DNA of 64,000 bases from Candidatus Zixiibacteriota bacterium (GTDB taxonomy: Bacteria > Zixibacteria > MSB-5A5 > GN15 > FEB-12). The position numbers and the translations under genes are program-made. This document shows, one piece after another, positions 16,482 to 46,463 of the stretch. The stretch lies in the NCBI GenBank assembly GCA_035380245.1, contig DAOSXA010000003.1, positions 486,926 to 550,925 of the forward strand, given 5' to 3'. The notes below the pieces were generated by a model that did not search any database, was not told where the DNA came from, and saw only the letters and a list, made by a program, of their open reading frames with translations. Each line of letters starts with the position of its first letter. Position 1 is the first letter of the stretch.

Positions 16482-16495
16482 GGAGCTGAGAGGAT

Positions 16496-20035: not shown

Positions 20036-20081
20036 TGATCGAATTGCGGTTGGCTTCGGAAGTAGTTGAGGCTTATGAGGC

Positions 20082-21643: not shown

Positions 21644-24379
21644 CTATTGGGACATCCAGAATTTGCAAGGCTCCGGTCCGCTGTTGAACATATAGTTTAC
21701 GAGGTATACCAGGTCGCTGATATCCGGTCCGCCGCCGCTGCAGTTCATGTCGGCGGCTTCCATGGGAATCGGTTCCAGTCCGCCCTGGAACATGTAGGAG
21801 ACCAGGTACACAAGGTCACTGATGTCGATGCTTGCCTCGCCGTTGACGTTGCCGGCCATTACCAGTTCCTGACCGGCCCATTTGAAGCGGATAACCTGTC
21901 CCGTATTGACACCGGTATAACTCTCGCCTACAGCGGTTTTATAATTTAACGCCGCACAGCCCTCAGTGCCGATACCCACCGCCACCGTACTGCTGATGCT
22001 GCTGATTCCGACATCGTTGTATTGGAAGAATATCTCGCCGAATCTGGTTAGGATTATTTCGAAGTTAATGGTCGTATCGCCGGAATCGTAAAAGCTGCCC
22101 GGATGATACCATTCAATTACCATCTTATCGTATCCCGGCGGATTGTAGAGATAGACGCCCGCTTCCGGATTGACCTCATCGTCGATGATCAGGTCACCGT
22201 AGAACGGGGCTACAACCGTAGCGTAAGGGGCTCCGGGAATGTCAATACTCGAGAAGTAACCGCTGACGTTGATGTTGGTGTCGGTAAATGAAATGGCTCC
22301 GTTCACACCGATGAAGAAACGAACGAAACTGGTATCGTAAAACGGGAAAGCGAAACCGATATTACGCGGTCCGGCTGAGCCGTCGTCGAGCGGATCTGCA
22401 AAGCCCGGATTGTAAAATGAGCTGTTATTGATTTTGGCCCCGAGTGTTTTAGCTGATATCCAGTCGAAAACCGGACCGTTGGGATCATCAGAACTAATGA
22501 CATCGTAAGTCAGATCGTTACAAGGCACCGTAAGGTAAACCGGTACATTAGTAATGGAATCTAATGGTAGCCCGGAGGTTCCCCATTGTATCTCAAGTAA
22601 TCCTTTATAGCGCTCCAGCCGGTTTTCTACCTGGGTAGCATCCAACTCAACCAATATCTCAATAGAATCCGCTGCTGCGATTACCCCTGAAGAGGGACTG
22701 GCGCTTAACCATTCCGCCGGATCCTTTACGTCCAGAGTGTCCTGAGTTGTAATCTCAAAGTCCAAGGCATTGGTTATGGACCGGTTATACAACCAAAGTG
22801 ATATATCGGCCACGGTACTGTCGTCGATCAAGGTGTCGATTAAAATCGGGTTGGTATACAGCGAAGGAGGCGGCGACAGGGCTGGGATCGCTGCGGCGAG
22901 ATTGGGACGTGGTCCTATATGGGCCGTAGTATCACCGGCCTGAGTCGTACCGGTTTGGACCAGGATGGAACGGATCATATCCGAGGTCAGATTAACGCCA
23001 TAGTTCGCCTTGTAATAACCCTGAAGACAGACAGAAGCGCCGGTTACTATCGGCGAGGCCGAGGAGGTACCACTGAAGGAAGAAGTGTAATACTGATTTA
23101 TATCATCATTGCCGTCGAATAGAGAACCGTATCCGGTGGAGTAAACACCTGATCCGTAACCCTGCAGGTTAACTCTTTCACCGTAATTCGAAAAAGATTG
23201 TCGGATTCGATCTTGCCCTGAAGCCGGGGGATAACCGGCGCCAACGATGATGGCGTGGGAGTTGCGGTAGGTCGTGTCGAATACCTGTTCGTAGATTACA
23301 TCATCGAAATCCTCCGCCCCGTTACCGGCGGCCTCGACAACCACGATTCCCTTAGCCCAGGCATATTGAATAGCGTCGAAATTAGCTTGCCAGTATTCCA
23401 TGCAGATATAACCAAGTTGATCCAGGCGAGCAGTGAAATCATAGCGCGGCCCGGGGGCATGCAGCTCGATCAGAATATGGTCGCCCGGTTCCAGGTTATC
23501 GATTGCCGTGTACAAGGCCTCGGCCGTTGACTGCACTGTCACTGAAACCATCCCCACATCGGCGCCGGGGCAGATACCGGTCATGCCATAACCGTTGTCT
23601 CCCGCGACCATCTCACCAAGCACGGCCGTTCCGTGGTGACCGGTTGTTCCACCACCCGGGTACGAGCCGATTACGCCTCCCAGAGCTTTTTCCAGATCTT
23701 CGTGAGTGGTTTGCCAGTTGTTTTCAATGTCGATAATTTTTACGCCGGAGCCGTTCCCGCCCGGTAAAGTATTGGCATAGTCGGCATCGACACCGTCAGG
23801 GGCTGCCTCACGGTAATCCTGGTCGGCATGATAGTCGGGAGTGGGAGGATCAATATCCTCTGCTTCTTCCGGTTGCGGTTGGAAGTAGGCGATCTCAACG
23901 ATATCCAAAGCGTTGAGTCGATTAATAAGCCCTGCCGCCTCGTTCGGATCGGTCACATCTATACGGTAATAGCCGTTAAGATCGGCCAGCTCATACCCGG
24001 TTTTGTACTGAAGGGCATCGCGCTGCCGGTCAAGCCTGGTTTCATCCTGATCGGCAAACAGACGCCGAAGGCGTTTGTCCATGTAGGGAGACAGGATATC
24101 AACTGCGCCGGCAGGGGAGGTGTCTCCCAGTGCTATCATCCGGCTGTTTCTCAGTCTCACTGCGGCGTCGTCCTTGAACTTCACTACCACGTGCGAGATA
24201 TTGACGTTCGGTCCGATGGCGACATTAGTCGGTTTTTGTGCCGGTACTCGTTCGATAAAAGGGTACTGAGCGGCGATTGTATCATTCGTTCGGGTTTGGG
24301 CGGTCATGATCGAGGTCAGGACTAATATGACGGTTATCCCGCCAATGAGCAGGAAGGGGATCGCGGATCTGACTTTCAT
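21644..24379 (-). CDS. Secreted subtilisin-like (S8) serine protease with propeptide, large middle region and C-terminal dockerin-like repeats
   Basis: Asp (VKIIDIENNW), His (GHHGTAVLGE) and Ser (SGTSSASPIVTG) appear in D-H-S order. Signal peptide MKVRSAIPFLLIGGITVILVL. The C-terminus has two EF-hand-like repeats (NGEASIDISDLVYLVSYMF / GGGPDISDLVYLVNYMF). The start at 24379 is preferred (GGAG RBS) over 24394. Confidence 0.8.
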   Translation of the reverse strand: MKVRSAIPFLLIGGITVILVLTSIMTAQTRTNDTIAAQYPFIERVPAQKPTNVAIGPNVNISHVVVKFKDDAAVRLRNSRMIALGDTSPAGAVDILSPYMDKRLRRLFADQDETRLDRQRDALQYKTGYELADLNGYYRIDVTDPNEAAGLINRLNALDIVEIAYFQPQPEEAEDIDPPTPDYHADQDYREAAPDGVDADYANTLPGGNGSGVKIIDIENNWQTTHEDLEKALGGVIGSYPGGGTTGHHGTAVLGEMVAGDNGYGMTGICPGADVGMVSVTVQSTAEALYTAIDNLEPGDHILIELHAPGPRYDFTARLDQLGYICMEYWQANFDAIQYAWAKGIVVVEAAGNGAEDFDDVIYEQVFDTTYRNSHAIIVGAGYPPASGQDRIRQSFSNYGERVNLQGYGSGVYSTGYGSLFDGNDDINQYYTSSFSGTSSASPIVTGASVCLQGYYKANYGVNLTSDMIRSILVQTGTTQAGDTTAHIGPRPNLAAAIPALSPPPSLYTNPILIDTLIDDSTVADISLWLYNRSITNALDFEITTQDTLDVKDPAEWLSASPSSGVIAAADSIEILVELDATQVENRLERYKGLLEIQWGTSGLPLDSITNVPVYLTVPCNDLTYDVISSDDPNGPVFDWISAKTLGAKINNSSFYNPGFADPLDDGSAGPRNIGFAFPFYDTSFVRFFIGVNGAISFTDTNINVSGYFSSIDIPGAPYATVVAPFYGDLIIDDEVNPEAGVYLYNPPGYDKMVIEWYHPGSFYDSGDTTINFEIILTRFGEIFFQYNDVGISSISSTVAVGIGTEGCAALNYKTAVGESYTGVNTGQVIRFKWAGQELVMAGNVNGEASIDISDLVYLVSYMFQGGLEPIPMEAADMNCSGGGPDISDLVYLVNYMFNSGPEPCKFWMSQ

Positions 24380-24559
24380 TTTAGCTCCGAGCATGTTGCA
24401 GTATGGCGATGGTGGGGCGAATCCGAACTGGAATCCGGCTCCATCATAAATATAACCTTAAACGGTTATAAGGCAAAAACTGTTTTACCGAACGCAAAAA
24501 CGCCTGTCTGTCAGGTTATCGGCAGGATAAAGGGCCGGATCAAGCTTGGAGAGGTCGAA

Positions 24560-30222: not shown

Positions 30223-32532
30223 ATGCCGGATTATGCCAGATTGCGCCGCGACCTGATCTCATCACCGATGGAGGTGGATGGGGCCACGGTCTATACGGTC
30301 AAGGATCCCATCCGTGGGACCTTTTTCCGTTTACGCGAACCGGAGCATTGGCTGATCCATCAGTTGGACGGGGTGACCTCGTACGATGAGATTGCCGCCC
30401 GCTTCAAGGAGAAATACGGTTTTAACCTCAGCGCTGAAAATGTAAGGCAGTTCGTGCAAGCGCTGGAGAAACTCTTTTTTCTGGAAAACTGTCGAGCCGA
30501 GCAAGCGGTCTCGCGTACCAGCTATATAGCTGAAGAGCACCGTTCGCTGTGGTCACGTCTGCTTTATGTGCGACTGCGGGCGATCAATCCCAAGCGTTTA
30601 CTGGATCGATTACTGCCCTGGTATCGCCCCTGGCACTCGATGACGGGGTGGCTGCTGCAATTGATTTTGCTGGTCGTAGGGCTGTCGGTACTGGCGGCCA
30701 ATGTCAACACCTTTGCCGTAAATCTTTATTCGGTATTCAACCTCGGTTCGGTGATTGCGATTGTCATTTCGTTCTTCATTCTGATAACGCTTCACGAGTT
30801 TGCCCATGCGGTGGTCTGTCGTTACTACGGGGGAGAGGTAACCGAAATGGGCTTTCTGTTGATGTATTTTCAGCCCTGTTTTTATTGTGATCTCTCGGAT
30901 GCCTGGCTGTTCAAGAACAAGCGGCATCGACTGGCGGTGACTTTTGCCGGTCCCTATTTTCAAATACTCCTGATGGCGGTTGCGGTGCTGGTCTGGCGAG
31001 TTACCGTCCCGGGGATATTGATCAACGATATTGCCCGCATCGTGGCGATTATCTGTTTCGTGACATTGCTGTTTAATTTCAATCCGCTGATCAAGCTGGA
31101 CGGTTATTACCTGCTGTCGGACTGGCTGGATATTCCCAATCTTCGCTCCAAGGCATTCGGTTATGTTTCCAACTGGTTCCGACGGGTAGTTCTGGGCTGG
31201 TCCGAGCCAAAATATCCTGCAACCGGGAGAGAACGGCGGATATTCGGGATATACGCGGTTTTTTCCGGGCTATATACGTTCTTTCTCCTTTTCTGGGTGC
31301 TTCGTGTTATCGGTCGTTTTCTTTATGACTCCATGGGGCCGACCGGATTGTTGTTGTTAGCGGTGCTGATCTTGTTTATTATTCACGGCAGTATCACAGG
31401 CTTTTTCAAGGGACTGATAAAGCACATTGTCCAGATGAAAGAAATCGCTAAAAAACCGCTTAGACTGATCATTCAGTTAATCATCCTGATCGCACTGATA
31501 GTGATATTGTTTTGGGTGCCGTTCACCCAACGAGTCACCGGCGAAGTGGCGGTTCGTCCGGCAGCACAGTTCAGTCTTCTTGTCAATAACTTAGGACTTC
31601 TTGAGAAGCGGCTCCAGAAGGGCGGGGCGGAACCGAGTACGCAATCGTCATACGTTCAAATGACCACCACCGAAATGGCTACCTTGAACCTTAAACCGGT
31701 GGTGGCGGACGGCCAGATGGTGGCGAACGGAGATACGGTGGCAGTGCTGCTGTCAAATCAGGTCACCAGCGATATATCTGCCGGACTGGCGGAGCTGGAG
31801 CAACTTGAGTTCGAACTGGCCCTGCTGCGATCCCCCCCCAAAGCCGAGGAAGTGGCTGAAGCGAAGACCGATGTTGAAGCCGCCGAGGCCAACCTTATGC
31901 AACTCCAACGCGATCTGCAGCGAATCGAAACCCTGAGCGCCAAGAATCTCACGACGGCAGCGCAGTTGGAAACGGCTCGCTCCAGTGTCGATATCGCCCG
32001 GGCTACGCTGAAGAACCGGCAGGCTAAGCTGGAATTACTCAAGTCGCCGCCCAAACCCGAGGAAGAGGCGGTAATCAGATCGCAAATTCAGCGTCAACGT
32101 GCCGACCTTGATTTTCTGTATTCACAGGAAGCGGCCCAGTCGGTTACGACGGAGATCCGGGGAGTGGTGAGCCTTCCGCGTGAAGGAGAGTCGATCCTGC
32201 AGATTACCGATGCCTCTCGGATAGAACTGCTGGTACCGGTTTCGGATTTCGATCTTGGTCTGGTTGAGCCGGGGCAGAGGGTTAAGCTTAAGGTTCGGAC
32301 TTATGTCGATACGGTATTTGTCGGGCAGGTGGTTCATATTCCGGTTACAGCGGTTTCGATAGGTGATCACTCGGTATATCAGGTAGGTGTTTTGGTTAAT
32401 AATCCCGAGGGACGCCTCAAACCGGGAATGAGCGGGTATGCGAAGATCGAGATAAAAGACAGCTCTCTTTTCAGACTAATTCTCAGGAAAATTACTTCAT
32501 TTGTCCGCGTCGAGTTCTGGTCCTGGTGGTAA
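30223..32532 (+). CDS. Fusion protein: PqqD/RRE-like N-domain, site-2-protease (peptidase M50) membrane core and HlyD/membrane-fusion-protein periplasmic adaptor
   Basis: aa ~15-90, FFRLREPEHWLIHQLDGVTSYDEIAARFKEKYGFNLSAENVRQFVQALEKLFFLE, is PqqD-like. HEFAH (nt 30793-30807) and NPLIKLDG are the two S2P zinc motifs, set within multiple TM helices. aa ~455-769 form a coiled-coil hairpin (LLRSPPKAEEV / LLKSPPKPEEE) plus a beta-barrel segment (GQRVKLKVRTY..VGQVVHIP, GMSGYAKIEI), typical of HlyD adaptors. Confidence 0.7.
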   Translation: MPDYARLRRDLISSPMEVDGATVYTVKDPIRGTFFRLREPEHWLIHQLDGVTSYDEIAARFKEKYGFNLSAENVRQFVQALEKLFFLENCRAEQAVSRTSYIAEEHRSLWSRLLYVRLRAINPKRLLDRLLPWYRPWHSMTGWLLQLILLVVGLSVLAANVNTFAVNLYSVFNLGSVIAIVISFFILITLHEFAHAVVCRYYGGEVTEMGFLLMYFQPCFYCDLSDAWLFKNKRHRLAVTFAGPYFQILLMAVAVLVWRVTVPGILINDIARIVAIICFVTLLFNFNPLIKLDGYYLLSDWLDIPNLRSKAFGYVSNWFRRVVLGWSEPKYPATGRERRIFGIYAVFSGLYTFFLLFWVLRVIGRFLYDSMGPTGLLLLAVLILFIIHGSITGFFKGLIKHIVQMKEIAKKPLRLIIQLIILIALIVILFWVPFTQRVTGEVAVRPAAQFSLLVNNLGLLEKRLQKGGAEPSTQSSYVQMTTTEMATLNLKPVVADGQMVANGDTVAVLLSNQVTSDISAGLAELEQLEFELALLRSPPKAEEVAEAKTDVEAAEANLMQLQRDLQRIETLSAKNLTTAAQLETARSSVDIARATLKNRQAKLELLKSPPKPEEEAVIRSQIQRQRADLDFLYSQEAAQSVTTEIRGVVSLPREGESILQITDASRIELLVPVSDFDLGLVEPGQRVKLKVRTYVDTVFVGQVVHIPVTAVSIGDHSVYQVGVLVNNPEGRLKPGMSGYAKIEIKDSSLFRLILRKITSFVRVEFWSWW

Positions 32533-32679
32533 GATCGCCGTTTTATCTAAACCATTACTTTAAGATGTGATTGTAATGTGGTGTGGTGTAGTGGGAGTGG
32601 GTGATAAAATTATCGCGTCGTAAGTGGTGGTGATGTTACAATTTAACAGTATCCGTGTAACTATAATCCACATTTGACC

Positions 32680-32708
32680 TTGACATATTGTGAGTTTGGC
32701 TCTACTTT
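32680..32708 (+). promoter_or_regulatory. Candidate promoter for the small peptide gene
   Basis: TTGACA (32680-32685; an overlapping TTGACC at 32674), 17-nt spacer, TACTTT (32703-32708). Confidence 0.35.
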
Positions 32709-32796
32709 TAGAATTGAGCCCAGGTTTCCTTCCTTTAACGGAATCTTGGTTCGTACGTTTCTAAACAACCTATGGCTGAAACAGGAGGAATTAACC

Positions 32797-32871
32797 ATGA
32801 CCTATGAACTGACTGTTGAAGTTCTTGAGGCTCGCGTAGCGCCCATGGGAATCTCATTGGGCGGCCAGTGA
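32797..32871 (+). CDS. 24-aa peptide MTYELTVEVLEARVAPMGISLGGQ (candidate substrate or signal peptide)
   Basis: The ATG is preceded by AGGAGGA (32783-32789, 7-nt spacer), the strongest SD in the neighbourhood. A TGA stop is followed 30 nt later by a 12-bp-stem terminator. It sits on the same strand as, and 264 nt after, the M50-HlyD gene. No homology evidence is available. Confidence 0.45.
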   Translation: MTYELTVEVLEARVAPMGISLGGQ

Positions 32872-32901
32872 TTCTGGTGACGACTGCGTAGTTACATCAG
32901 A

Positions 32902-32937
32902 AGGCAGGTATTTTCTAAATACCTGCCTATCTTTTTT
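32902..32937. terminator. Strong hairpin terminator shared by the peptide gene (+) and the convergent kinase gene (-)
   Basis: AGGCAGGTATTT (32902-32913), loop TCT, AAATACCTGCCT (32917-32928), then ATCTTTTTT. The kinase stop codon (32927-32929, minus strand) lies inside the 3' arm. Confidence 0.8.
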
Positions 32938-35908
32938 GGGCAATTTTAGTTTTAAGTCCGTTGATTTGATCCACCAACAGCTTTATTTCCGGTCGTGATT
33001 GATAGCATGTTCTCCGGGATACATCGCTCAGCGATAAAGCGACTTGTTTGGCCGCGTTCAGTCCCTTTTTAGCCGCAGCAAACGACTCTTCGTATTCACC
33101 GAGGCTGAGCGCTACTTGAGCCTGAAGCGCCAGAATGTCAACTAGTTCCGGCACCAATCCACACCGATTGGCAGCCGACTCGGCTCGCAGCGCCAGGTCC
33201 CGGGCCTCTTTTATCAGACCATTGGTGCTGTAGATCCGACCGGCCAGAGCCAGGAGTCCTGCTTGCTCGACATCCTCGTGCATTTTTTCGAGGTGAGGCT
33301 GGATGGTTTGTTGGAATTGCGACAGAGTTTCATCGGGCGAGGACGGTAACAAGTGGCTTAAGCGGTTAGCTTCGATCAGAATTCTCTCCCGCTCCATATT
33401 GAGTTCTTGGGCTAGTTCCAGACCACGGTTAATCACACTGTCGTCATCGGTCAGTTTTGATATGAGTATCAAGGCATTCAACAGGTTGGGATTGTCCTGC
33501 TGGTCTTCGGCCTGAGCTGCCGATTTCTTTGCCAGGGTCAGGGCCTCATCATAATTACCAATGAACTGCTGAAGACCGGCGCAAGCATGCCAGTGAATCG
33601 TTTCGAGAAGCTTGTCGTCGATCTCTTCCAGCATGTCAGCGGTTTGATTCAGATCGATCTGAGCTTCACCGAACCGGCCAAGACGTTTCAGGACCGTACC
33701 GCGCATGCAATGGAACGAGGCAACGTGAGGAATATCCTCAAGCTCCCGGCCTAGGGCCAGACCTTCCTCAAGATATCCCAATGAGCGCTGCAACTGCCCG
33801 GCCGTGACCGACAGATGAGACAGATTTTCTAAATTGAACAGGGTTTCCTTTTTTGAACCGATACGCCGGTTGAATTCCAGCGATTCATCGAGACTTTCGA
33901 CCGCTTCCGCATTACGCCCCATGAGGTGGTAGACGTAGCCTAAGTTGTTCAACGTTCTGGCGATTTCACCCTGGTCGCCAATTTCTCGCTTCATTCTCAG
34001 TGATATCTCAAGCAGTCGCACGGATTTGCGATATCGTCCGGTAATGCCGTGCACGGAGCCGACATTGCTCAAGGAAGAAGCCGCGTCGGCGTCAGCGCCG
34101 AGGCGACGCTGTATAGTCAATGCCATGAGATAATAACGGCGGGCTTCGCTCAAGTCACCAGCCACCCAATAGGCATTGCCAAGATTGTTGTAAGTATGTG
34201 AAATCTCTAATTCGTCGTCCAACTCACGGTAGATTTTGAGAGCCTCGTTGAGAGCCTGAAGCGCACCCTTCGAGTCCTGCTTCAGCTTAAATAAATCACC
34301 CAATGACTTGTAGACTATTGCCAGCAGTTTGTCCACCGGACGGTTCCGGTACAATTCAATCAGCGTGTTATAGGCGTTTTGGGCGGCGGTCGTGCGACCA
34401 ACCCCCTTTTGTAAATCACCTTCAGTCAGCAGTAATTTACGAGCCGAGAACGGATCACCGATGGTCCGGGCATAACCAATCACTCGTTTCAACAGGAAGA
34501 TCGCCTCGTCTGCCCGATGGTCTTTTTCAAGCAAAGCTGCCGCCTGAGAAGCGCAACGTTCGGCGGCTTCAAGATTGCCGGCCTGGTGGTACAGCCGGGT
34601 AGCCTGATCGTATCGAGAGTCGTGTTCAGCCTCGGGAGCGAGCTTTTGCGAGATCCTTTGAACGGTTGCCGGTCGAAGCATCGTGAGTAACAGATCCGGC
34701 AAACCGGCCGGATAATTTTCCACTTCAACCGGATTTTCCGTTTGAGAAGGAGACACTCGGTCCGCCTGGCCCATGACGGCCTTGATGATCAAATGTCGTT
34801 TCTCGGTCAGGTCGGCTTCAGCGAAGCTTTGAAGTTGATTCCGTCGATGTCGGCTGGTCCAGTAAGCCTCGGCTGAGAACTGGAATTTAGTGTCGTTGTA
34901 AACCAGAGTCCGGCGGCTGTAATTAACTTCAGCCAATTGTCGCAGACAGAGGCCGTTGTGGTCGGTGATTTTATTGAGATGAACACGTTGCCGAGAGGTG
35001 AGAATGAATCGACTCTCACAAATGCTGTCGAATTCTCCCCAGGGATCGACCAACCATTTGGGACGAAGCACTTGTTCGAATGGATAGGTAGCGCCGCAAT
35101 CACGCAGACGGCAACAAACGTTCCAGGCGGAATCCGGGCGATCCGAGGGATTCACCGATAGAAGGGATGTGACCAGAGTGCATATCGGGCCGGATAGCTC
35201 GGGCTTAACGACCTCAAGTCGCGGGTAGTCCGCTTCAATTATACGACCGTTAATACGCACCGGATCACTGTCGGACTCACTCCAGAAAGGATGCTTACCG
35301 GTGAGTAGCCGATAGGCAATAACACCGAGGGCGAATAAGTCCGAAGCGTGACTGGAACCTTTGCCTGAGATTATTTCTGGAGCCATATAACCGACGGTTC
35401 CGGCTCCGGCGCGGGCCGACTCCGGTTCCGTTTCCAGGCGTCCTAAGGAGAAATCGGACAGCTTAATATAGTGCAGGCGGCCGTCGGCGATTTCCTGCCA
35501 ATCCTCGGGCAGGAATACATTATGGACTTTCAGATCGCCATGTATGAGAGAGCGTGCCCGGAGAAATTCCAGATCGACGGCAATGGCTGAAATGATGTTT
35601 AGCGCCAGAGTCGTGTTGTCGAGACGGCCGATTTGATCGAGGCTGGGGCCCTCGCAGAGCTCTAAAAGGAGCCAGGGAGGATTTTCGCTGTAATCAAGCA
35701 GGCGAACGATCCCCGGAAATCTGAGACCGCCGATAAGGTAATTTTCACGAGCGGCGAGACGCCCGAAATCTACTTCTTCAGGAGTGGCATCAGGTAGAGG
35801 CGTTTTTAGCGCAGCTTCGTGCTTTCGCCCCGGGCAGGAAACGCGCACTACCTCGGCGGTACCTCCCTTGCCTAACGGAGCGATGACCCGAAAACCGGCC
35901 ATATTCAT
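32927..35908 (-). CDS. Ser/Thr protein kinase (non-RD) with a long C-terminal TPR array
   Basis: Kinase motifs: LGKGGTAEV (G-loop), AALK, HGDLKVHNVF (catalytic loop with G in place of R), KLSDFSLG (DFG-like), GTVGYMAPE. The remaining ~650 aa contain many TPR-like repeats (e.g. AYNTLIELY, YNNLGNAYWVAGDLSEARRYY, LNNLGYVYHLMGRNAEAVESL). Confidence 0.8.
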   Translation of the reverse strand: MNMAGFRVIAPLGKGGTAEVVRVSCPGRKHEAALKTPLPDATPEEVDFGRLAARENYLIGGLRFPGIVRLLDYSENPPWLLLELCEGPSLDQIGRLDNTTLALNIISAIAVDLEFLRARSLIHGDLKVHNVFLPEDWQEIADGRLHYIKLSDFSLGRLETEPESARAGAGTVGYMAPEIISGKGSSHASDLFALGVIAYRLLTGKHPFWSESDSDPVRINGRIIEADYPRLEVVKPELSGPICTLVTSLLSVNPSDRPDSAWNVCCRLRDCGATYPFEQVLRPKWLVDPWGEFDSICESRFILTSRQRVHLNKITDHNGLCLRQLAEVNYSRRTLVYNDTKFQFSAEAYWTSRHRRNQLQSFAEADLTEKRHLIIKAVMGQADRVSPSQTENPVEVENYPAGLPDLLLTMLRPATVQRISQKLAPEAEHDSRYDQATRLYHQAGNLEAAERCASQAAALLEKDHRADEAIFLLKRVIGYARTIGDPFSARKLLLTEGDLQKGVGRTTAAQNAYNTLIELYRNRPVDKLLAIVYKSLGDLFKLKQDSKGALQALNEALKIYRELDDELEISHTYNNLGNAYWVAGDLSEARRYYLMALTIQRRLGADADAASSLSNVGSVHGITGRYRKSVRLLEISLRMKREIGDQGEIARTLNNLGYVYHLMGRNAEAVESLDESLEFNRRIGSKKETLFNLENLSHLSVTAGQLQRSLGYLEEGLALGRELEDIPHVASFHCMRGTVLKRLGRFGEAQIDLNQTADMLEEIDDKLLETIHWHACAGLQQFIGNYDEALTLAKKSAAQAEDQQDNPNLLNALILISKLTDDDSVINRGLELAQELNMERERILIEANRLSHLLPSSPDETLSQFQQTIQPHLEKMHEDVEQAGLLALAGRIYSTNGLIKEARDLALRAESAANRCGLVPELVDILALQAQVALSLGEYEESFAAAKKGLNAAKQVALSLSDVSRRTCYQSRPEIKLLVDQINGLKTKIAQKR

Positions 35909-35917: not shown

Positions 35918-37726
35918 TTAGGTCTGCTTGGAATGTTTGGGCTGGAAGCGGGGAAGAATGACCCGGAAGCATGTTCCCAGGCCGTGGGTCGATTCTGCCT
36001 CGATAGTACCGTGATGGTTCTCGATGATCTTGCGGCAATTGGCCAGACCGAGTCCATGCCCGCCCTTTTTGGTCGTGAAGTGCAGGGTGAAGATCCGGTC
36101 CAGGGTTTCTTTGGCCATACCGACGCCGTTGTCGGTTACTTCCACCACCACCTTCTCATCTTCAGCGCGATAAAAAGCTTTCAAGCCGATTTCGCGTTTG
36201 AATTCCATGCCGGACTCTTCCTCTTTAATCGCCCGCTCTTCAATGGCATCGGCGGCATTGTTAAGCAGGTTCAAAAGCACCTGCTGAACCTGTCCGACAT
36301 CCATCTCGACATTGGGGAGATCGTGTCCGAGGTCAATGGTGAAATGAGACCGCTTGAAACGCGGCTGCACCCGGAGCGAGAACAGGAGGTCCTCGACCAG
36401 GTGTTTGATGTCATAACTTATGTATTCCGGCTCCGGTTTGGCAAAGTCCATCAGATTGTCGACGAAACGTTTGATCTTGAAGATATTGTCGACGATCATC
36501 TTGGCGTTAAACTTGGCTTTGTCGTGGTTGTCCCGGTCGATATTCAGCGAAAGCAACTCAGCGTTGGTGGAAGCCAGGGCCAGATGGTTATTCAACTCAT
36601 GGGCGATGGAGGCAGCCATTTCTCCCTTGGCGGCCAGCTTCTCGGAGAGGATGAGATATTTCTCCATGACCACTTTCTCAGTGATGTCTTCGAGAGCCAG
36701 AATGATGCCGTCGCGGCCGTTAGGCAGCGATGAAATCGGGTGCAGCTTGAGGGAGAGGACCTTCTCTACGTAATTGGTGTTGTAGAAAAAGCGCGAATCC
36801 GATAAATCCTGCTGAGTCTGGAGGACATTATCGATGATATTGCGCCAACGCAGACGCTCCTCGTCGGGGATAATATCCAGAAACAGCGAGGCGGTTTCAG
36901 CGTCGGTCATGCTGCGGATGTCCTCGCGGTTGATATCGAAAATTTCCAGGGCCACCGGATTCATGGTAGCGATTCGGCCGTCGGAGTCGACAACCACGAT
37001 TCCAACCGGTGATAATTTGATAACCGACTCATTGTACTGCTTCATGCTCAGGAGGGTATTATAGAGCTCGGCGTTGTACAGGGCATTGGCTACCAATTGG
37101 GCATACAATTCGAACTGATACAGGTCGGATTTCAGGAATACCTTGGTCTGGCTGGAATTGTCGACGTAAATCACGCCGATAATCTGTTGCTTGACCTTGA
37201 TTGGAACGCACATGATCGAACGCAGATGAAGTTCCAGCACCGATGCCTGAGTGGAATAACGGTCATCGGCGAGGGCGTCCGAAGTGTACACTGATTTTCC
37301 GCTGGTGACAACCTGCGAGGCGATGGAACTGCTGATCCGGAATCCTTCGCTGGAGATATCTTCCTTGGCCAGATTATGCCGCATGCGAACTTTCAGCTCA
37401 CCTTCTTCGTCGAGCAGCATGATCAGTCCGCGTTCGGCCTGCATCAGTTCGATCGCCTTTTGCATGACGATACGAAGGACGTCATCGGCGACCAGTGAAG
37501 AGTTCACCGCCAGTGAGGCTTCCAGAAGTGCTCGTAAATCCTCGACCGCTTTCGAGGATTCACCGTCGCTCAATTCGATGCGTGGATTCGCCTCGGCGAC
37601 TTCTTCCAGTGTTGCTTCCAGATCGGCGAAAATATCGGCGGCCTGGTTGGCATCAGGGTCCGGCGTCGCGCCTAACTGTTCGGTCACGATTCGTCCGGTA
37701 GCATTGGAGTCTTTAGTCTTGCTCAT
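35918..37726 (-). CDS. Cytoplasmic GAF-PAS sensor histidine kinase
   Basis: GAF-like region (aa ~70-215), PAS-like region (SPVGIVVVDSDGRIATMNPVALEIF), H-box ASIAHELNNHL, N-box LLNLLNNAADAI, G1 DNGVGM, G2 GGHGLGL. No TM segments seen. Confidence 0.85.
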   Translation of the reverse strand: MSKTKDSNATGRIVTEQLGATPDPDANQAADIFADLEATLEEVAEANPRIELSDGESSKAVEDLRALLEASLAVNSSLVADDVLRIVMQKAIELMQAERGLIMLLDEEGELKVRMRHNLAKEDISSEGFRISSSIASQVVTSGKSVYTSDALADDRYSTQASVLELHLRSIMCVPIKVKQQIIGVIYVDNSSQTKVFLKSDLYQFELYAQLVANALYNAELYNTLLSMKQYNESVIKLSPVGIVVVDSDGRIATMNPVALEIFDINREDIRSMTDAETASLFLDIIPDEERLRWRNIIDNVLQTQQDLSDSRFFYNTNYVEKVLSLKLHPISSLPNGRDGIILALEDITEKVVMEKYLILSEKLAAKGEMAASIAHELNNHLALASTNAELLSLNIDRDNHDKAKFNAKMIVDNIFKIKRFVDNLMDFAKPEPEYISYDIKHLVEDLLFSLRVQPRFKRSHFTIDLGHDLPNVEMDVGQVQQVLLNLLNNAADAIEERAIKEEESGMEFKREIGLKAFYRAEDEKVVVEVTDNGVGMAKETLDRIFTLHFTTKKGGHGLGLANCRKIIENHHGTIEAESTHGLGTCFRVILPRFQPKHSKQT

Positions 37727-37832
37727 TGAAGTCCGTACTTCCTCCTGAGTAATATCTTGTTTCTTTATCGGCCGACAGGGAGAAACAGTTAACCGGAAAT
37801 CGCTGAAGAATTGTCTTAAGACTTTGTCCGGC

Positions 37833-38483
37833 TTATTCTTTTGTTGGAAGATCGGAAATCTTGAAAGGTTCTGAGCGGGTTGAGAAGTCGCTACGACCGT
37901 AGCCGGTCAGCTCAAGGAATGATGCAAACAAGAAACGGAGCGGTGATGAGCCGCTTGAGGCGGGATCGCTTGATTCTGGTAAGTTAAAGGTAGTCATTGA
38001 AATACAAGCTGCGTTGAGAGTCAGGCAGTAGCGGTTGTGGTTGTTAATCCGATCGTTTAAGGCTATTGATATGAGGATTGAATCGGCCAGAAAACGGTGC
38101 AGTTTGGCTAGCGATGAAAACGAATGCAAGAGTGAATCAGCTGAATCCGAGGGATTCCACTCGAACCGGTCGGTGATCAGGCGATAGTTTAGCTCGAACG
38201 AACCGGATTCCTCAACTACCGCTCGCTCCCCCCACAATCGGCGGGGTTGAACCAGCCGCACGTTGTAATCGACCTGTAAATCTACTCCTTCCCTGAGTCC
38301 TTCAACCCGGCGCGAAGTCAGCAAGCTGGAGAAATCAATCCAGATCACCAGATTCGAGTCGGTTCGGTACAGGTCAAAATCAAGACTACCGGATTCTTCG
38401 GCATCGGTCGAGGTTGCTATCAAGAACCAAAGCAACAGACCGGAAAGAACCCGGCTGAAAAATATGCCGGCACGGTGACCCAT
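37833..38483 (-). CDS. Exported DUF4390-like protein
   Basis: Signal peptide. The core pattern LVIWIDFSSLLTSRRVEGLREGVDLQVDYNVRLVQPRRLWGERAVVEESGSFELNYRLITDRF resembles the DUF4390 proteins found next to ntrYX-type systems. Assigned from memory of the family pattern. Confidence 0.35.
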   Translation of the reverse strand: MGHRAGIFFSRVLSGLLLWFLIATSTDAEESGSLDFDLYRTDSNLVIWIDFSSLLTSRRVEGLREGVDLQVDYNVRLVQPRRLWGERAVVEESGSFELNYRLITDRFEWNPSDSADSLLHSFSSLAKLHRFLADSILISIALNDRINNHNRYCLTLNAACISMTTFNLPESSDPASSGSSPLRFLFASFLELTGYGRSDFSTRSEPFKISDLPTKE

Positions 38484-38497
38484 TGTGTATTAACAGC

Positions 38498-40285
38498 TTA
38501 GAATTTATGGCTAAAGCGTACGTATAACTCCGGGTCGTTGTCGGTGCTGCGATCGAGGCGTTTTGCCGCCGTTACTCTGAGGTCGCTGCCAAGATAGACA
38601 GATACGCCAACCGATTGCTTGAGTTCCTCAAAATAAACTTGTTCATCCTCAGGCATTAAGGCTGGGTCGGTGTTGTCGACATCCACCACCCCGGCATCGT
38701 AGTGAAGCGATACAGCCAGATCGGTTCGCGGGAAGCTCTGACGTAATTCGGCATTTGCCATCATGAACATATCGCCGACAAATTCCTTCTGATCGTATCC
38801 CCGAAGAGTTCCGAGACCACCCAGATAGTAAAGCTTGTGCATCGGTACTTCACCATCGCTGTCGCCGGTTACTCCCCTTAAAAGGAGCATCTTGTGGCGG
38901 TCCAGGCGCTGGTAGCGGGCTACCGACAGCCAATAACGCTTATAGTCGAAGTCGGAATCCAGATCGGGATGGGAGTATTCCATACGAGCCTGGATATTCC
39001 AGCCGGAGCGTTCGAACATGTGTCGCTCATTGCGTGTGTCCAGTTGCAGGTTGACGGCCACGAAACCGTCAATAGAGCCATCCAGGGTTTCAATCCCCGC
39101 CGCTCGGGTGGCCGAGTCGACCATGGCGAAATTCTCCTGGAACGGATCCCCGCCGAACAACGCCCAGAGGTTGTGGTGGGCATCCAGCCAGCGCGATTTT
39201 ACATTATTGTAACTGGCGGTGATCGTCAGTGCCTTAAATGGAGCAAAGCCCAGGGATACTTGAGAGCCTTCGGCCTCCCACCAGTCCTTGTAGTCCTTGC
39301 GAGCCAGGATTGAGGTTATCGAGTTCTCATCCGGTCCGATCACCCAGTCATCATCTGCTGCCAGATCGCGATAATACCGAGCCCCGATTTTGAGGTCGAT
39401 TTTACGCCACAGGTCCTGTTCGATACCCAGATCGAAACGCCAGCGTTCGGAGGCGAAAGCGTAGCCGACTTTACCCCAGAAGGTCGGAATGGAGATATCA
39501 TCATCATGGTATTTCTGACCCCACCAGGCGGAGAAGCCGTCGACCCGGTTATATCCCATATTAACCTGTGTTGAGAACCGGTCGTAATGAGTGGCCAAAT
39601 GGCTTCGATAAGAACGCCGCCGCTTGTGAGCGGTATAAGACTCTCCATATACGGTGGCATCGGGCGCGACATCGATCTGCCCCGTTACCGCAACCATATC
39701 GCCGCGGACCACGGCCTCGGGACCGACATAGATATCGCCGAACAAGGATACGACATCCTTGTTTACTTCACCGTAAACCTCGACATCGCCAATTATGCTG
39801 AATACGGCACCCCGGACGAATTCCTCTTCGTCAATAATTACTGCCCGCTCGAATTCGATTCTGTTTCCACGTCGCAATTGGGACAATCGAGTCGATGATG
39901 CCGAGCGTGAAAGAGCGGTAATGTAGCAGGTATCGTTTTCATATCGTATATGAATATCATGAATATCATCCAGTGATCGGGTAACGCCGTCGATAGTCAG
40001 TCCGGCGTCACTGAACAACACCTGGTCCTTTATTGAAACCCGGTTTGTTTCGATATTAAGATCGTTGCGTTCGAAGTTGACCCGATGGCCGGTTCCCTGA
40101 TCGTCGGAAAAAGCGATCGTTACATCGTTTTTGAGAAACGAAATCGTGAATAAGGTGTCAAAGGTGGTTCGCGGTTCGTAGGTTTTATAATCTCCGTCGT
40201 CAGCTCCTGAAGAAGAACCGACCGTCAGAACCGTAACCATGAGAATTGTTGTCAGCAGATATTTCATATCGAATCTATTTAGCAT
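38498..40285 (-). CDS. Omp85/surface-antigen-type outer-membrane beta-barrel with an N-terminal bactofilin-like beta-helical segment
   Basis: The C-terminal barrel has LYYLGGLGTLRGYDQKEF (Omp85 motif) and a terminal ..YVRFSHKF beta-signal. aa ~175-235, IIGDVEVYGEVNKDVVSLFGDIYVGPEAVVRGDMVAVTGQIDVAPDATVYGE, form bactofilin-like repeats. No obvious POTRA domain. The start at 40285 follows GGAGG (6 nt). Confidence 0.6.
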   Translation of the reverse strand: MLNRFDMKYLLTTILMVTVLTVGSSSGADDGDYKTYEPRTTFDTLFTISFLKNDVTIAFSDDQGTGHRVNFERNDLNIETNRVSIKDQVLFSDAGLTIDGVTRSLDDIHDIHIRYENDTCYITALSRSASSTRLSQLRRGNRIEFERAVIIDEEEFVRGAVFSIIGDVEVYGEVNKDVVSLFGDIYVGPEAVVRGDMVAVTGQIDVAPDATVYGESYTAHKRRRSYRSHLATHYDRFSTQVNMGYNRVDGFSAWWGQKYHDDDISIPTFWGKVGYAFASERWRFDLGIEQDLWRKIDLKIGARYYRDLAADDDWVIGPDENSITSILARKDYKDWWEAEGSQVSLGFAPFKALTITASYNNVKSRWLDAHHNLWALFGGDPFQENFAMVDSATRAAGIETLDGSIDGFVAVNLQLDTRNERHMFERSGWNIQARMEYSHPDLDSDFDYKRYWLSVARYQRLDRHKMLLLRGVTGDSDGEVPMHKLYYLGGLGTLRGYDQKEFVGDMFMMANAELRQSFPRTDLAVSLHYDAGVVDVDNTDPALMPEDEQVYFEELKQSVGVSVYLGSDLRVTAAKRLDRSTDNDPELYVRFSHKF

Positions 40286-40310
40286 TGCTGCCTCCGTTTT
40301 TCTATAGCTA

Positions 40311-40328
40311 TACAACAAATCGCATGCC
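40311..40328 (-). promoter_or_regulatory. Candidate sigma54 (-24/-12) promoter upstream of the Omp85-like gene
   Basis: The minus strand reads TGGCATGCGATTTGTT, against the consensus TGGCAC-N5-TTGC. GG/TTG spacing is correct. There is one mismatch in each element, including -12 C to T. It lies ~25 nt upstream of the start, directly downstream of a sigma54-dependent activator gene. Confidence 0.3.
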
Positions 40329-40415
40329 AACAAGTCAACGTTGGAAATACGTTGAATTTACCGATGCGAACAAGCCCGACCGTGGCAATTTAACATGGTT
40401 GGTAACAAAATCTGT

Positions 40416-41759
40416 TCACTGTTCCGCCTTTATGGCATAGTCACGAATTTTACGCGAAAGGTTAGCCCGGTCGATTTTAAGGCGGCGAGCAGCTTCAGCG
40501 ATGTTGCCGTCGCATTTCGCAAGCGTTTCGGCGATAAGACTGCGTTCGAACCGAGCCATACTCGCATTTAAACCGATTTCATCGGAGTCGGCATTTCGGC
40601 TGCTTCCTGCGCCTAGTTGTTCACGAAGCTCGTTCAATCCGATCGCTCGTCCCGGATAAACAATCGCAAGGCGTTCGATCAGGTTCCGTAACTGGCGTAC
40701 GTTGCCCGGCCAGTCGAGAGTGGTCAGGAAGGAAATAGCCTCGGCGCTCAGGGCGGTCTGACCGTCAGGTGCCAGTTTTCGCAAAAATTCTCCGACCAGA
40801 AGAGGGATATCATCGGGTCGATCTCGAAGCAACGGGACTTCGACCGAAAGGACGCTTATACGATAAAACAGGTCCTCGCGAAACAATCGCTCTTGAACGA
40901 GTTCGGGAAGGTTGCGATTAGTAGCGCAAAGCACGCGAATATCGACCACCCGTTTTTCGACCGCGCCGATAGTCTCGATCTCACCGGTTTCTAAAACCCG
41001 CAGAAGTTTGGCCTGACAGGGAAGAGGCAGATCGCCAATCTCGTCGAGAAAAATCGTTCCTTCATCCGCCAGGGCGAACTTGCCGGGATAGTCTTTGACC
41101 GCTCCTGTGAATGATCCCTTGATATGGCCGAACAACTCCGATTCGAACAGTGTTTCCGGGATGCCCGGACAGTTGACCTTGATCAACGGTTTATTGCGTC
41201 GAGGCGAAGCCAAATGAAGGCGTGTCGCCACCAGTTCCTTGCCGGTGCCGTTGGCCCCGGTGATCAGGACGGTGGCATCGCTCGGAGCCGCCTGTGCAAT
41301 CTGTCGGTTGAGGCGCTCCATCAGGCGCGACCGGCCGATCATCGGCGACTCCCGGTCCACCTCGTCCGCCATCACCGATCGCTGGCGGTCGACTCGCACC
41401 AGCATCATCGCCGCCCGAACCGAAGCAACCAGTCGATCCGGTGCGACCGGCTTTTCGAGATAATCCACCGCTCCGAGTCGGACCGCTTCAAGCGCCACCG
41501 ATATCTCCGATTGTCCCGAAACCACCAGTACGCGGGGGGAGTGTTGTTTCTTTTGTAATTCTTCGAGCAGGGCTATGCCGGAGCGACCGGGAAGATTCAA
41601 ATCGAGCAGGATCAGATCGATTGCGGATCGTTCCATAGCTCGCAGGGCTTCTTCGGAGTCGTTCGCAGGAATGCAGACATAACCTTCATCCTGGAGCAGG
41701 GAAGCGAACGATGAGACAATGTTGGGTTCGTCGTCGACGATGAGAATTTTCTCAGTCAT
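40416..41759 (-). CDS. Sigma54-dependent response regulator (NtrC/NtrX family)
   Basis: Receiver domain (ILIVDDEPNI, DLILLDLNLPG). AAA+ domain with Walker A GANGTGKE, ESELFGH.KGSFTGA (GAFTGA-type) and the RVLCATN region. C-terminal Fis-type HTH (GNIAEAARRLKIDRANLSRKI). Confidence 0.9.
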   Translation of the reverse strand: MTEKILIVDDEPNIVSSFASLLQDEGYVCIPANDSEEALRAMERSAIDLILLDLNLPGRSGIALLEELQKKQHSPRVLVVSGQSEISVALEAVRLGAVDYLEKPVAPDRLVASVRAAMMLVRVDRQRSVMADEVDRESPMIGRSRLMERLNRQIAQAAPSDATVLITGANGTGKELVATRLHLASPRRNKPLIKVNCPGIPETLFESELFGHIKGSFTGAVKDYPGKFALADEGTIFLDEIGDLPLPCQAKLLRVLETGEIETIGAVEKRVVDIRVLCATNRNLPELVQERLFREDLFYRISVLSVEVPLLRDRPDDIPLLVGEFLRKLAPDGQTALSAEAISFLTTLDWPGNVRQLRNLIERLAIVYPGRAIGLNELREQLGAGSSRNADSDEIGLNASMARFERSLIAETLAKCDGNIAEAARRLKIDRANLSRKIRDYAIKAEQ

Positions 41760-43194: not shown

Positions 43195-43766
43195 TGCGAT
43201 TCGTTTAGATACCTGGTCCGATAATCGGCCAGGGCCTGAATGTGAGCCTCAAAGGCGATTTTATCCGGCAGGGCATCGAACGGGAAGAATCGCACCTCCA
43301 TCGCATCGTCGCCCGCCTTGGCGGTGCCGCCGGCAATGTCGGCCAGAAACAGGATCAAGACGGCATTGGTACGGGGGTCGTCATCGCCGGAGTATACATC
43401 GAATAACTCCGTCAGTTTCACGTCCAGCGAGGTTTCTTCCTTCAATTCCCGGACGGTGCACTCACGCGGCGATTCGGACCATTCCATATAACCGGCGGGC
43501 AGACACCACCAGCCGATGTGCGGGGGATGGGCTCGTTTTACCAGCAGGACACGGTTGTTTTCGACGATAATCGCGCCCGCTGCCGGGATCGGATTCTGAT
43601 AATAAACGAATCCACAGTCTTTATTCGGGCAGGCCATGCGACGGTTGCCGTCCAACTCGCGCTCCACCATCTCGGTACGACAGCGTGGGCACCAGCGATA
43701 ACCCATGTGATTGTCTTTCAGGTCGTTTAGTCGTTCGGGATCGAAATCAGAATGTTGCTCACTCAT
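43191..43766 (-). CDS. NUDIX hydrolase with N-terminal zinc ribbon (NudC-like architecture)
   Basis: CPRC..(17)..CPNKDC zinc ribbon. Nudix box GYMEWSESPRECTVRELKEETSL. It overlaps both neighbours (8 nt and 4 nt). Confidence 0.8.
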   Translation of the reverse strand: MSEQHSDFDPERLNDLKDNHMGYRWCPRCRTEMVERELDGNRRMACPNKDCGFVYYQNPIPAAGAIIVENNRVLLVKRAHPPHIGWWCLPAGYMEWSESPRECTVRELKEETSLDVKLTELFDVYSGDDDPRTNAVLILFLADIAGGTAKAGDDAMEVRFFPFDALPDKIAFEAHIQALADYRTRYLNESQ

Positions 43767-46040: not shown

Positions 46041-46463
46041 TCAACTCAATTTCTTGGTAATGGTGACTCGCGTTCCCCTGGAAGAAGGATTAACATCGAC
46101 CTTATCCATCAGGGAGCGAACAATGAATATCCCGCGACCGACATCCTTAAGCAGGTTCTCATCACTGATCGGATTAGCGATGCCGTCCGGGTTGAATCCG
46201 CGGCCCTGGTCGCTCACTTCGATCGAGACTTCATCACCCGATTTAACGACTTTAACCGTTACCGAAAGATCCACCGAGAGCTTATTCCCGTGAGTGATGG
46301 CGTTGTTGACCAGCTCGGAAACTGATATGGCGACATCGGCAATGAAGGATTCATCAGCGTTCCAGCCGCGCAACAGGCCCTCTACGAACATATCGACATC
46401 GCTGAGAAACTGGTGGTCGGAAGGGATGACAATCGTGTTTCCCACGATCTTGGGTTTCTGCAT
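46041..46463 (-). CDS. Anti-sigma-factor-type Ser kinase (RsbW/SpoIIAB-like HATPase)
   Basis: N-box ELVNNAITHGN, G1 DQGRGF, G2 GRGIFIVRSL; about 140 aa. The start at 46463 (MQKPKIV...) is preferred. Confidence 0.8.
   Translation of the reverse strand: MQKPKIVGNTIVIPSDHQFLSDVDMFVEGLLRGWNADESFIADVAISVSELVNNAITHGNKLSVDLSVTVKVVKSGDEVSIEVSDQGRGFNPDGIANPISDENLLKDVGRGIFIVRSLMDKVDVNPSSRGTRVTITKKLS

Follow-up and report, generated by a model that had tools for sequence, protein, structure and literature searches.

A probable leader-plus-octapeptide substrate of an RRE–M50 protease–periplasmic adaptor fusion encoded by a 24-codon gene in Zixibacteria

The DNA described here (the window) is a stretch of 64,000 nucleotides (nt) from a Candidatus Zixiibacteriota bacterium (GenBank assembly GCA_035380245.1, contig DAOSXA010000003.1, positions 486,926 to 550,925 of the forward strand), and positions are counted from its first letter unless a locus of another genome is named. 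It contains an open reading frame (ORF) of 24 codons on the plus strand that starts with ATG at 32797, stops with TGA at 32869-32871, reads ATG ACC TAT ... GGC GGC CAG TGA and is translated as MTYELTVEVLEARVAPMGISLGGQ. A preliminary description of this DNA had reported the peptide and its Gly-Gly-Gln end, and both its coordinates and its translation are exact. The small gene follows, on the same strand, the gene of a 769-residue protein in which a RiPP recognition element (RRE; RiPP, peptide that is made ribosomally and modified post-translationally), an M50 protease and a periplasmic adaptor are fused, and it faces a convergent gene for a Ser/Thr kinase with tetratricopeptide repeats (TPR). 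The 24-residue product is most likely a ribosomal precursor and the dedicated substrate of the 769-residue protein, which is itself most likely an uncharacterised relative of the daptide peptide-maturation system. The best overall explanation, to which we assign a probability of about 0.6, is that the peptide is a leader-plus-octapeptide substrate of the adjacent fusion protein.

The peptide gene carries its own expression signals. A sigma-70-type promoter (32680..32708, +) has the -35 hexamer TTGACA at 32680-32685, a 17-nt spacer and the -10 hexamer TACTTT at 32703-32708, ~90 nt upstream of the ATG. This promoter was missed by a consensus scan, its -10 hexamer matching the consensus at 3 of 6 positions; in relatives the -10 hexamer is TATACT or TATATT, and both hexamers align in seven of them (alignment A5), where they are the sole well-kept blocks of otherwise divergent intergenic DNA. 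The 5'-untranslated region (5'-UTR) contains a hairpin, CCAGGTTTCC...GGAATCTTGG (32720..32749, +), read directly from the sequence, and relatives have hairpins of other sequence about as far upstream of the Shine-Dalgarno site, with CCTCC...GGAGG in several. RNAalifold returned no consensus structure for 18 5'-UTRs, an alignment too divergent for it, with individual hairpins visible. The Shine-Dalgarno sequence AGGAGGA (32783..32789, +) lies 7 nt ahead of the ATG; AGGAGG is invariant in 18 relatives, and a AAGGAGGTGA-like site precedes 68 of the 68 peptides of the family collected below. Downstream, an intrinsic terminator (32902..32938, +) consists of a 12-bp GC-rich hairpin, AGGCAGGTATTT...AAATACCTGCCT, with a T-run and abuts the stop codon of the convergent kinase gene; the corresponding hairpin AGGCAGGT...ACCTGCCT and T-run are kept in seven relatives. 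The gap between the upstream gene and the peptide gene has a median of 239 nt over the loci. With its own promoter, its own terminator and this wide intergenic gap, the peptide gene reads as a separate transcription unit and not as the tail of the upstream gene. A longer reading of 65 residues from a TTG at 32674 was rejected, relatives having a stop codon or unrelated sequence just ahead of the Met. A search of Rfam with 32400-33000 gave no match, and Pfam and NCBIfam gave no family at permissive E-values with the 24-mer and a 32-residue variant as queries. Between the large gene and the peptide promoter there is a GT-rich stretch at 32570-32640 (GTGATTGTAATGTGGTGTGGTGTAGTGGGAGTGGGTG...GTGGTGGTGATG), which appears as an insertion relative to the seven aligned relatives.

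Related peptides were collected from a sample drawn by the upstream gene: the 769-residue protein has thousands of homologues, with names mostly from Zixibacteria, and 80 genome loci were fetched through them. A regular expression recovered 68 peptides in 58 loci, all of them right after homologues of the 769-residue gene, and a hidden Markov model of the leader placed a same-strand small ORF after the homologue in 60 of the 80. Scanning metagenomes with the peptide alone (the closer peptide set A3) added 19 loci, each with an ORF of this kind; 16 of them had enough upstream DNA, and in all 16 the large gene came directly before the small ORF. The family consensus is M-x-D-Y-K-L-T-V-E-V-L-E-A-R-I-A-P-x-G-x-S-Q-G-G-Q. 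Residues Y3, L5, L10, E11 and P16 are invariant (alignment A2), E8 is also a conserved column, and the conserved N-terminal pattern may be written Y-x-L-x-[VI]-E-x-L-E-x-[RK]-[IV]-A-P. Codon-position entropy is 0.58, 0.35 and 1.50 at positions 1, 2 and 3, and the ratio of synonymous to nonsynonymous codon differences is 16912:10148 in frame as against 2392:23131 and 796:25415 out of frame, a codon test that is partly circular because the loci were picked by an amino acid regular expression. Core Ser codons are AGY in 52 versions and TCN in 2, and Gly positions use all four codons. Tandem paralogues (four in locus L004, five in L007 and seven in L008) count in favor of a precursor role because such copies are typical of precursor genes. 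Within a collection of 15 billion proteins the 24-mers are absent, and variants of at least 30 residues are present solely as "hypothetical protein"; genes of 24 codons escape standard gene callers, and scans that start from the peptide pattern are needed. Judged by these comparisons of sequence, the small gene is real and its product is conserved at the amino acid level, beside the large gene, in Zixibacteria and allies over a phylum-level range. The checks on amino acid conservation (with the qualification just given for the codon test) and on paralogous copies that the preliminary description had proposed thus came out on the side of a genuine gene.

Conservation and the positions of insertions and deletions change abruptly right after Pro16, and for this reason the boundary between leader and core is placed there. 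The leader region (residues 1-16, 32797..32844, +), MTYELTVEVLEARVAP, ends in LE-x-R-[IV]-A-P and is the predicted RRE-binding tag; the predicted core, or released product, is MGISLGGQ (residues 17-24, 32845..32868, +). A constant N-terminal 16-mer joined to a short variable C-terminal part has the appearance of a leader/core pattern. The core motif S-x-G-G-[QE] is retained through synonymous codon changes. Among the 68 peptides, 25 end in GGQ, three in GGE and four in GG[QE]G, and 13 continue past GGQ with a Gly/Trp/Pro-rich extension of 4-10 residues (as in GGQFQIGP, GGQLRGGPWG and GGQWDFGGGWG); another short core, S[RK][WYF]G.. and mostly S[RK][WY]Gx[DE], accounts for 13, and the remaining types for 10. 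The idea that the GGQ end would be conserved therefore held in part: S-x-G-G-Q is common, but it is frequently not terminal, and in one clade it is replaced by S[RK][WY]Gx[DE]. In this Zixibacterial clade (L004, L007 and L008) the single GGQ gene gives way to 4-7 tandem paralogues per locus with the same leader (L004:8488-9584, L007:8474-9511 and L008:8462-10168), the cores of which have 6 residues and are mostly of the type SRWGTD, SKYGVD or SRYGAE. Peptide lengths are 21-45 residues in the family and 21-35 within Zixibacteria, compared with 24 in the window. Past the TGA of the window gene the frame reads TTC TGG TGA (Phe-Trp-stop; 32869-32880 with the TGA included), which recalls the aromatic-rich extensions after GGQ in other members and could be what is left of a longer core, or a coincidence.

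The 769-residue protein is encoded at 30223..32532 (+) and is a predicted machine for recognition, cleavage and export. Its best NCBIfam match is daptide_HExxH (NF041824, "daptide biosynthesis intramembrane metalloprotease"; E 1e-69, 235 bits, residues 30-389), at a score below the curated cut-off of that model, and Pfam identifies Peptidase_M50, HlyD_D23 and HlyD_3; the YydH/LiaK model gives a weak match of 47 bits. The AlphaFold2 model (predicted local distance difference test score, pLDDT, 80.5) comprises an N-terminal unit of three strands and three helices (residues 12-83), a helical membrane domain and a long C-terminal part of coiled coil and barrel. The PqqD-like RRE domain (residues ~10-85, 30250..30477, +) has three strands followed by three helices in this model. 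When the N-terminal model was isolated and compared with the Protein Data Bank (PDB) by Foldseek, the top nine matches were all RRE domains, including TbiB1 (5v1v_A), TfuB1, CteB and SkfB; TbiB1, a structure with bound leader, gave TM-scores of 0.59/0.69 at a probability of 1.0. At the sequence level Pfam PqqD matches this domain weakly (E 0.011), the homologue P0047 is annotated PqqD, and a profile of the domain gave sub-significant matches to PDB sequences, the best of which are the RRE proteins TfuB1 and PqqD. The M50 site-2-protease membrane domain (30592..31515, +), found by both Pfam and NCBIfam, contains HEFAH (residues 191-195, nt 30793-30807) and NFNPLIKLDG (residues 285-294, nt 31075-31104), and H191, E192, H195, N285, N287, P288, D293 and G294 are invariant in 31 homologues. 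The C-terminal region (31519..32529, +) is a MacA/EmrA-like periplasmic adaptor with a long α-hairpin, for which Foldseek retrieved MacA (9qgy_G, E 3e-15, and 3fpp_A) and EmrA (8zar) from the PDB. Seven hydrophobic segments lead a topology prediction to place the RRE and the N terminus in the cytoplasm and the adaptor and the C terminus in the periplasm. The protein joins in one chain a cytoplasmic N-terminal RRE fold, a seven-transmembrane M50 zinc protease whose HExxH and LDG motifs are intact, and a periplasmic MacA-like adaptor.

The relation between this protein and the peptide can be read from the daptides. Daptide precursors have the leader motif ELExMEAP, in which the RRE needs L(-7) and M(-4) for binding; an RRE-fused intramembrane peptidase takes the leader off, and mature products begin right past the motif (PMC10036551, 10.1101/2025.07.11.664356). 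Residues L10, E11, A15 and P16 of the window peptide occupy positions -7, -6, -2 and -1 of this register. The preliminary description had remarked that LEARVAP looks like part of a leader and had been unable to place it in a known family; the first point agrees with the daptide register and with the same tag on distant family members, and the second is superseded, the motif now being aligned with the daptide-type leader of RRE-M50 peptidases. Its general idea of leader-guided cleavage and export is likewise in keeping, by analogy, with the RRE-M50-adaptor neighbor.

In the mechanism that we propose, the RRE would bind leader residues 1-16, since the alternating Y-x-L-x-V suits strand addition to the RRE sheet and L10/E11 match the RRE-binding daptide positions L(-7) and E/D(-6). 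The M50 site would then cut right after Ala15-Pro16, as the homologous daptide peptidase cuts after ELExMEAP in the same register, and would yield the octapeptide MGISLGGQ (calculated mass 761.37 Da). The fused adaptor would couple this release to a TolC-like outer-membrane duct, probably together with an unlinked MacB-type pump, so that the octapeptide leaves the cell. The octapeptide would most likely be a signal and not an antibiotic, because there is no linked tailoring enzyme, the core has 6-8 residues with a conserved S-x-G-G-Q, and an active-looking cytoplasmic TPR kinase is nearly always adjacent. A short exported signal is suggested by the short unmodified core, by the fused adaptor, which points to export, and by the adjacent TPR kinase, which could read it. 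These steps do not deserve equal confidence. That the peptide is a precursor or substrate of the RRE-M50 protein is highly probable; cleavage after Pro16, which relies on the daptide analogy, is slightly favored; and export, again by analogy, falls a little short of even odds. Signaling through the kinase is a tentative proposal. The complete circuit, in which a diderm of an uncultured phylum has a fusion protein that recognises, cuts and exports an unmodified octapeptide and a cytoplasmic TPR-Ser/Thr kinase that reads it, is improbable as a whole.

The leader motif is found well beyond the window. An exhaustive search yielded 2702 protease clusters (50% identity) at E<=1e-30, many with proteins of 700-950 residues and some consisting of RRE-M50 alone; the RRE-M50 proteases mostly carry the fused MacA-like adaptor, and database names are merely "HlyD family" or "site-2 protease". 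Distant members have beside their genes peptides in which a LEERIAP or LEPRIAP leader precedes an unrelated core. With the end of the leader marked by a slash, these are ...LEIERLEERIAP/GGFNPCGGGRHSKSHHSKSHH... (L101:3047-3229), ...LEVEVLEERIAP/SSLGSGGYEGQPGNQ... (L102:3222-3407, next to a 2-oxoglutarate (2OG) oxygenase gene), ...LELEKLEPRIAP/GLLGCVSITVPTLC... (L105:495-749) and ...EELEERIAP/SGFGPSNNG... (L078:5552-5689). Among the cores of distant members are a repeat of His, Ser and Lys that ends in CGC (HSKSHHSKSHH...GCGC), a repeat rich in Gly, Gln and Tyr and a 60-mer rich in Cys, Ser and Thr, and the four peptides look like a broad unrecognised precursor family. Since distant-member contexts carry the tag with unrelated cores, LE-x-R-I-A-P appears to be general to the protease superfamily, with the window peptide as its minimal-core form. 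At L104:345-7689 a family member is flanked on one side by a radical-SAM/SPASM gene and on the other by a B12-radical-SAM gene, past which lie two TldD/PmbA genes, a context that by its gene content is a clear RiPP cluster. Beside an unfused RRE-M50 gene at L106:1-7372 stands a metallo-β-lactamase-fold gene, after which come separate MacA-like and MacB-like genes; the other flank of the RRE-M50 gene has a TPR protein gene and a B12-radical-SAM gene. No precursor was identified at L104 or L106. The fused adaptor plausibly works with a MacB-type pump. Literature searches on the RRE-M50-adaptor architecture and on the leader motif found no description, and daptides are the sole characterised branch of the RRE-M50 protease family that was found. 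The window peptide provides this very large family of unannotated proteins with a concrete candidate substrate that can be put to the test. The daptide-type leader (LE...AP) would be a general address tag that reaches well beyond Actinomycetota and Bacillota and precedes cores of 6 to ~70 residues, and if the proposed reading is correct LE-x-R-I-A-P defines a large unrecognised family of RRE-M50(-adaptor) substrates. Within it the Zixibacterial version has the shortest cores, no tailoring genes and a tightly linked TPR kinase, and is a candidate for peptide signaling in a phylum without a cultured representative.

The convergent neighbor (32927..35908, -) encodes a 993-residue protein with a Ser/Thr kinase and a long TPR domain (Pfam Pkinase and TPR_12), a candidate receptor or modifier of the peptide. 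It has an N-terminal Hanks-type kinase domain and no transmembrane segment, and its catalytic residues are kept in 43 orthologues. Its TPR region is similar to the LGN/kinesin-light-chain type, a binder of short linear peptides, and marginally to NprR (E 0.005). The kinase gene is a neighbor in 50 of the 52 loci whose cores are GGQ-type, in none of three with S[RK][WY]G cores and in none of 14 in which no peptide was found. In L065, one of the two GGQ-type exceptions, the same operon is inverted and the kinase lies ~8 kb away. The loci of the tandem-paralogue clade lack the TPR kinase and still have the genes for a GAF histidine kinase and a DUF4390 protein. The trio of protease, peptide and kinase persists at 33-41% protease identity and with differing upstream genes (L043-L049, L052, L058 and L079), and this persistence argues for a functional module, with the counts inflated by shared ancestry.

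In the window the kinase gene is the last of a minus-strand signaling operon that ends at the peptide locus and extends, beyond the kinase, over 35918-46014 (-) to a SpoIIE gene at 46014. In order of transcription the operon encodes a SpoIIE/PP2C phosphatase with multiple transmembrane segments, a NUDIX protein, an NtrY-like HAMP kinase, a sigma-54 activator, an Omp85-like barrel, a DUF4390 protein, a GAF-PAS histidine kinase and the Ser/Thr kinase-TPR protein. The GAF-PAS histidine kinase (35918..37726, -), which has no transmembrane or periplasmic domain, is co-oriented with the Ser/Thr kinase at a distance of 9 nt and is syntenic in most loci. Upstream of the operon lie a STAS anti-anti-sigma gene and a HATPase_c_2 anti-sigma-like gene (46041-46883). 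Elsewhere in the window, a 916-residue S8 subtilase (21644-24394, -) has an N-terminal signal-like segment and C-terminal repeats DISDLVYLV(N/S)YMF that are dockerin-like or sorting-domain-like in appearance, and in L060 the gene directly upstream of the M50 gene likewise encodes an S8 protease. At 60866-62848 (+), beside an NAD synthase gene, a homologue of asparagine synthase (glutamine-hydrolysing) is encoded; its family includes lasso-peptide cyclases, and this one, 28 kb from the peptide and with no linked precursor, is probably a housekeeping enzyme. The Pfam scan of the window covered 46 proteins, with the nuo block (7175-21563) and a few short ORFs outside it.

Several observations weigh against the proposed reading. 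The 235-bit score of the 769-residue protein with NF041824 is below the equivalog cut-off of 300 bits, and the leader has R/K at -4 and I/V at -3 where daptides have M and E. The small ORF was not found in 20 of the 80 homologous loci, and these contain no alternative common small ORF, the apparent matches being the start of a thioredoxin-like gene. L012 and L081 have the peptide with no kinase nearby, and shared ancestry confounds the association of peptide and kinase. A linked energising transporter is missing from the window, as is an outer-membrane duct. The Ser/Thr kinase and the GAF-PAS histidine kinase are without transmembrane or periplasmic domains, so that sensing of an exported peptide would need re-import, and there is no Opp-type importer in the window. 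Finally, the conservation of S-x-G-G-Q across deep divergence is unusual for a pheromone; true pheromones usually diversify.

The main rival to the signaling step is phosphorylation of the core Ser by the kinase, a form of the wider proposal that the peptide is a modified RiPP, in which the leader recruits tailoring enzymes encoded elsewhere or the adjacent kinase acts on the core Ser before cleavage and export. LanKC/LanL kinase domains and the paeninodin kinase are precedents for precursor phosphorylation. In its favor, predictions give the kinase catalytic activity and a place in the cytoplasm, which it shares with the precursor; most GGQ-type peptides have Ser at core position -5, and the S[RK][WY]G type has it directly behind AP; and distant members of the protease family lie beside radical-SAM, 2OG-oxygenase and methyltransferase genes. 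Yet there is no tailoring enzyme in the window and none that recurs in ~100 Zixibacterial loci, some kinase-bearing loci have cores without Ser (IGIRIGGE in L079, IGFIVGDL... in L043), the Ser-containing S[RK][WY]G cores lack the kinase, and the kinase ends a long signaling operon and not a biosynthetic one. We regard such a modified RiPP as unlikely. Less probable again is a purely intracellular ligand, with the peptide or a fragment of it binding the kinase TPR inside the cell and the RRE-M50 protein setting its level by degradation or expulsion. The cytoplasmic location of both the Ser/Thr kinase and the GAF-PAS histidine kinase, the LGN/kinesin-light-chain resemblance of the TPR region and the tight genomic linkage would all suit such a ligand, but a MacA-like adaptor with a TolC-docking hairpin is hard to account for without export, and the strong promoter, the Shine-Dalgarno site, the terminator and the tandem copies of some genomes suggest bulk production.

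The two identities that the preliminary description had considered, a Pup-like tail and a double-glycine leader, are both very improbable. A Pup/UBact-like tag would be conjugated through its C-terminal Gln or Glu, and the occurrence of GGQ (25 of 68) and GGE (3 of 68) ends, an alternation as in Pup, together with S[RK][WY]G cores that also finish in D or E, would be in line with this. However, GGQ or GGE is terminal in 28 of 68 peptides and 17 continue past GG[QE], the conserved part is N-terminal and matches a protease-recognition leader, and the 24 residues compare with ~64 for Pup, such tags being disordered proteins of ~60-70 residues with a region that binds Mpa and the ligase. The same description had stated that pafA, dop, mpa and proteasome genes are missing from the window, which holds for the 46 Pfam-scanned window proteins (neither a Pup_ligase nor a proteasome domain), and the gene clusters of the loci show no recurrent ligase-like family. 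Cleavage after GG by a C39 peptidase exporter, as for bacteriocin-type peptides with double-glycine leaders, is the least credible of the alternatives: GG does lie near the C terminus and there are variants with 4-10 residues past GGQ, but most members have a single residue past GG, and conservation (columns Y3, L5, E8, L10, E11 and P16), the indel position and the daptide register all end the leader at Pro16. Positions -4, -8 and -12 from GG are S, P and A and not the I, E and L of LSxxELxxIxGG, and the linked protease is M50 and not C39; C39 and ABC domains were absent from the scanned window proteins and not recurrent in the gene families of the first 80 loci, and the ABC signature LSGGQ had no regular-expression match in window ORFs of at least 100 residues. 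Equally remote as the tag is a spurious ORF in the 3'-UTR, or an upstream ORF with a purely cis-regulatory role in the large gene's 3' region. The ORF is very short and was missed by gene callers, but its own promoter, Shine-Dalgarno site and terminator and its amino acid conservation with synonymous turnover contradict a spurious origin, and there is no same-strand gene downstream for it to regulate, the next gene being convergent. Pearlin-type logic, in which an M50 protease clips a single modified C-terminal residue (PMC10885120), was considered because Gln alone follows GG and was rejected, as no PEARL/LanB-like enzyme is linked and many members are extended. A cofactor precursor of the pyrroloquinoline quinone (PQQ) or mycofactocin type, which would have a similar size and an RRE, was also rejected, there being no linked radical-SAM enzyme and the export adaptor being fused.

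Of the known systems, daptides are the nearest to the leader-plus-octapeptide system of the window. In the MpaP/DapP peptidase, too, an N-terminal RRE precedes an M50 site-2 protease (PMC10036551); the 769-residue protein is homologous to that peptidase over residues 30-389, and LEARVAP stands in the identical register to the leader of MpaA, with L(-7), E/D(-6), A(-2) and P(-1) (PMC10036551). In both, short precursor genes adjoin the protease gene, at times in several copies. The differences lie in the core, the adaptor and the host: the core here has 6-8 hydrophilic residues, whereas that of daptides is a hydrophobic helix of ~20-25 residues; a MacA-like periplasmic adaptor is fused to the protease here; and the host is a diderm candidate phylum instead of Actinomycetota or Bacillota. 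The C-terminal Thr that is invariant in daptides and converted to a diamine is found in 0 of 68 peptides, and DapB (DUF-RRE), the DapC dehydrogenase, the DapD aminotransferase and the DapM methyltransferase are absent from the scanned window proteins and not recurrent in the first 80 loci. Because the C-terminal Thr and the daptide tailoring genes are missing in this way, the system is not a daptide; the peptide and protease make up a new form of the daptide-type pair of leader and peptidase, one that lacks daptide chemistry.

In the epipeptide system YydF/EpeX the membrane M50 protease EpeP (YydH) is thought to perform both the cleavage and the export of a small peptide (PMC10885120). The window locus differs from it in having no radical-SAM epimerase, in the RRE and adaptor carried by the protease and in an unrelated precursor. 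Class II double-glycine bacteriocins and their peptidase-containing ABC transporters (PCAT) share an unmodified peptide and one membrane machine that, with an HlyD-type adaptor, couples leader recognition, cutting and export. They differ in the leader motif, in the protease, which is M50 here and not C39, and in the ABC domain, which is neither fused nor linked here, and the core of the window peptide is far too short for a pore-forming bacteriocin.

In Firmicutes the M50 protease Eep cuts pheromones of the Eep/RRNPP type (SHP/Rgg and cCF10/PrgX), and cytoplasmic TPR receptors sense them. The Zixibacterial locus resembles them in a pro-peptide of ~20-25 residues, of which the C-terminal 7-8 would be the active part, in processing by an M50 site-2 protease (predicted for Zixibacteria) and in a cytoplasmic TPR-type protein encoded adjacently and often convergently. 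Unlike those systems, it is known from sequence alone and has no linked Opp importer; its leader is acidic, is predicted to be read by an RRE and is not like a signal peptide; its protease is fused to an adaptor for crossing the outer membrane; and its TPR protein has a Hanks-type kinase as output in place of a helix-turn-helix (HTH) or phosphatase domain. If the proposed circuit is correct, it would be a pheromone circuit in which RRNPP-like logic has been rebuilt from RiPP parts, with phosphorylation as its output.

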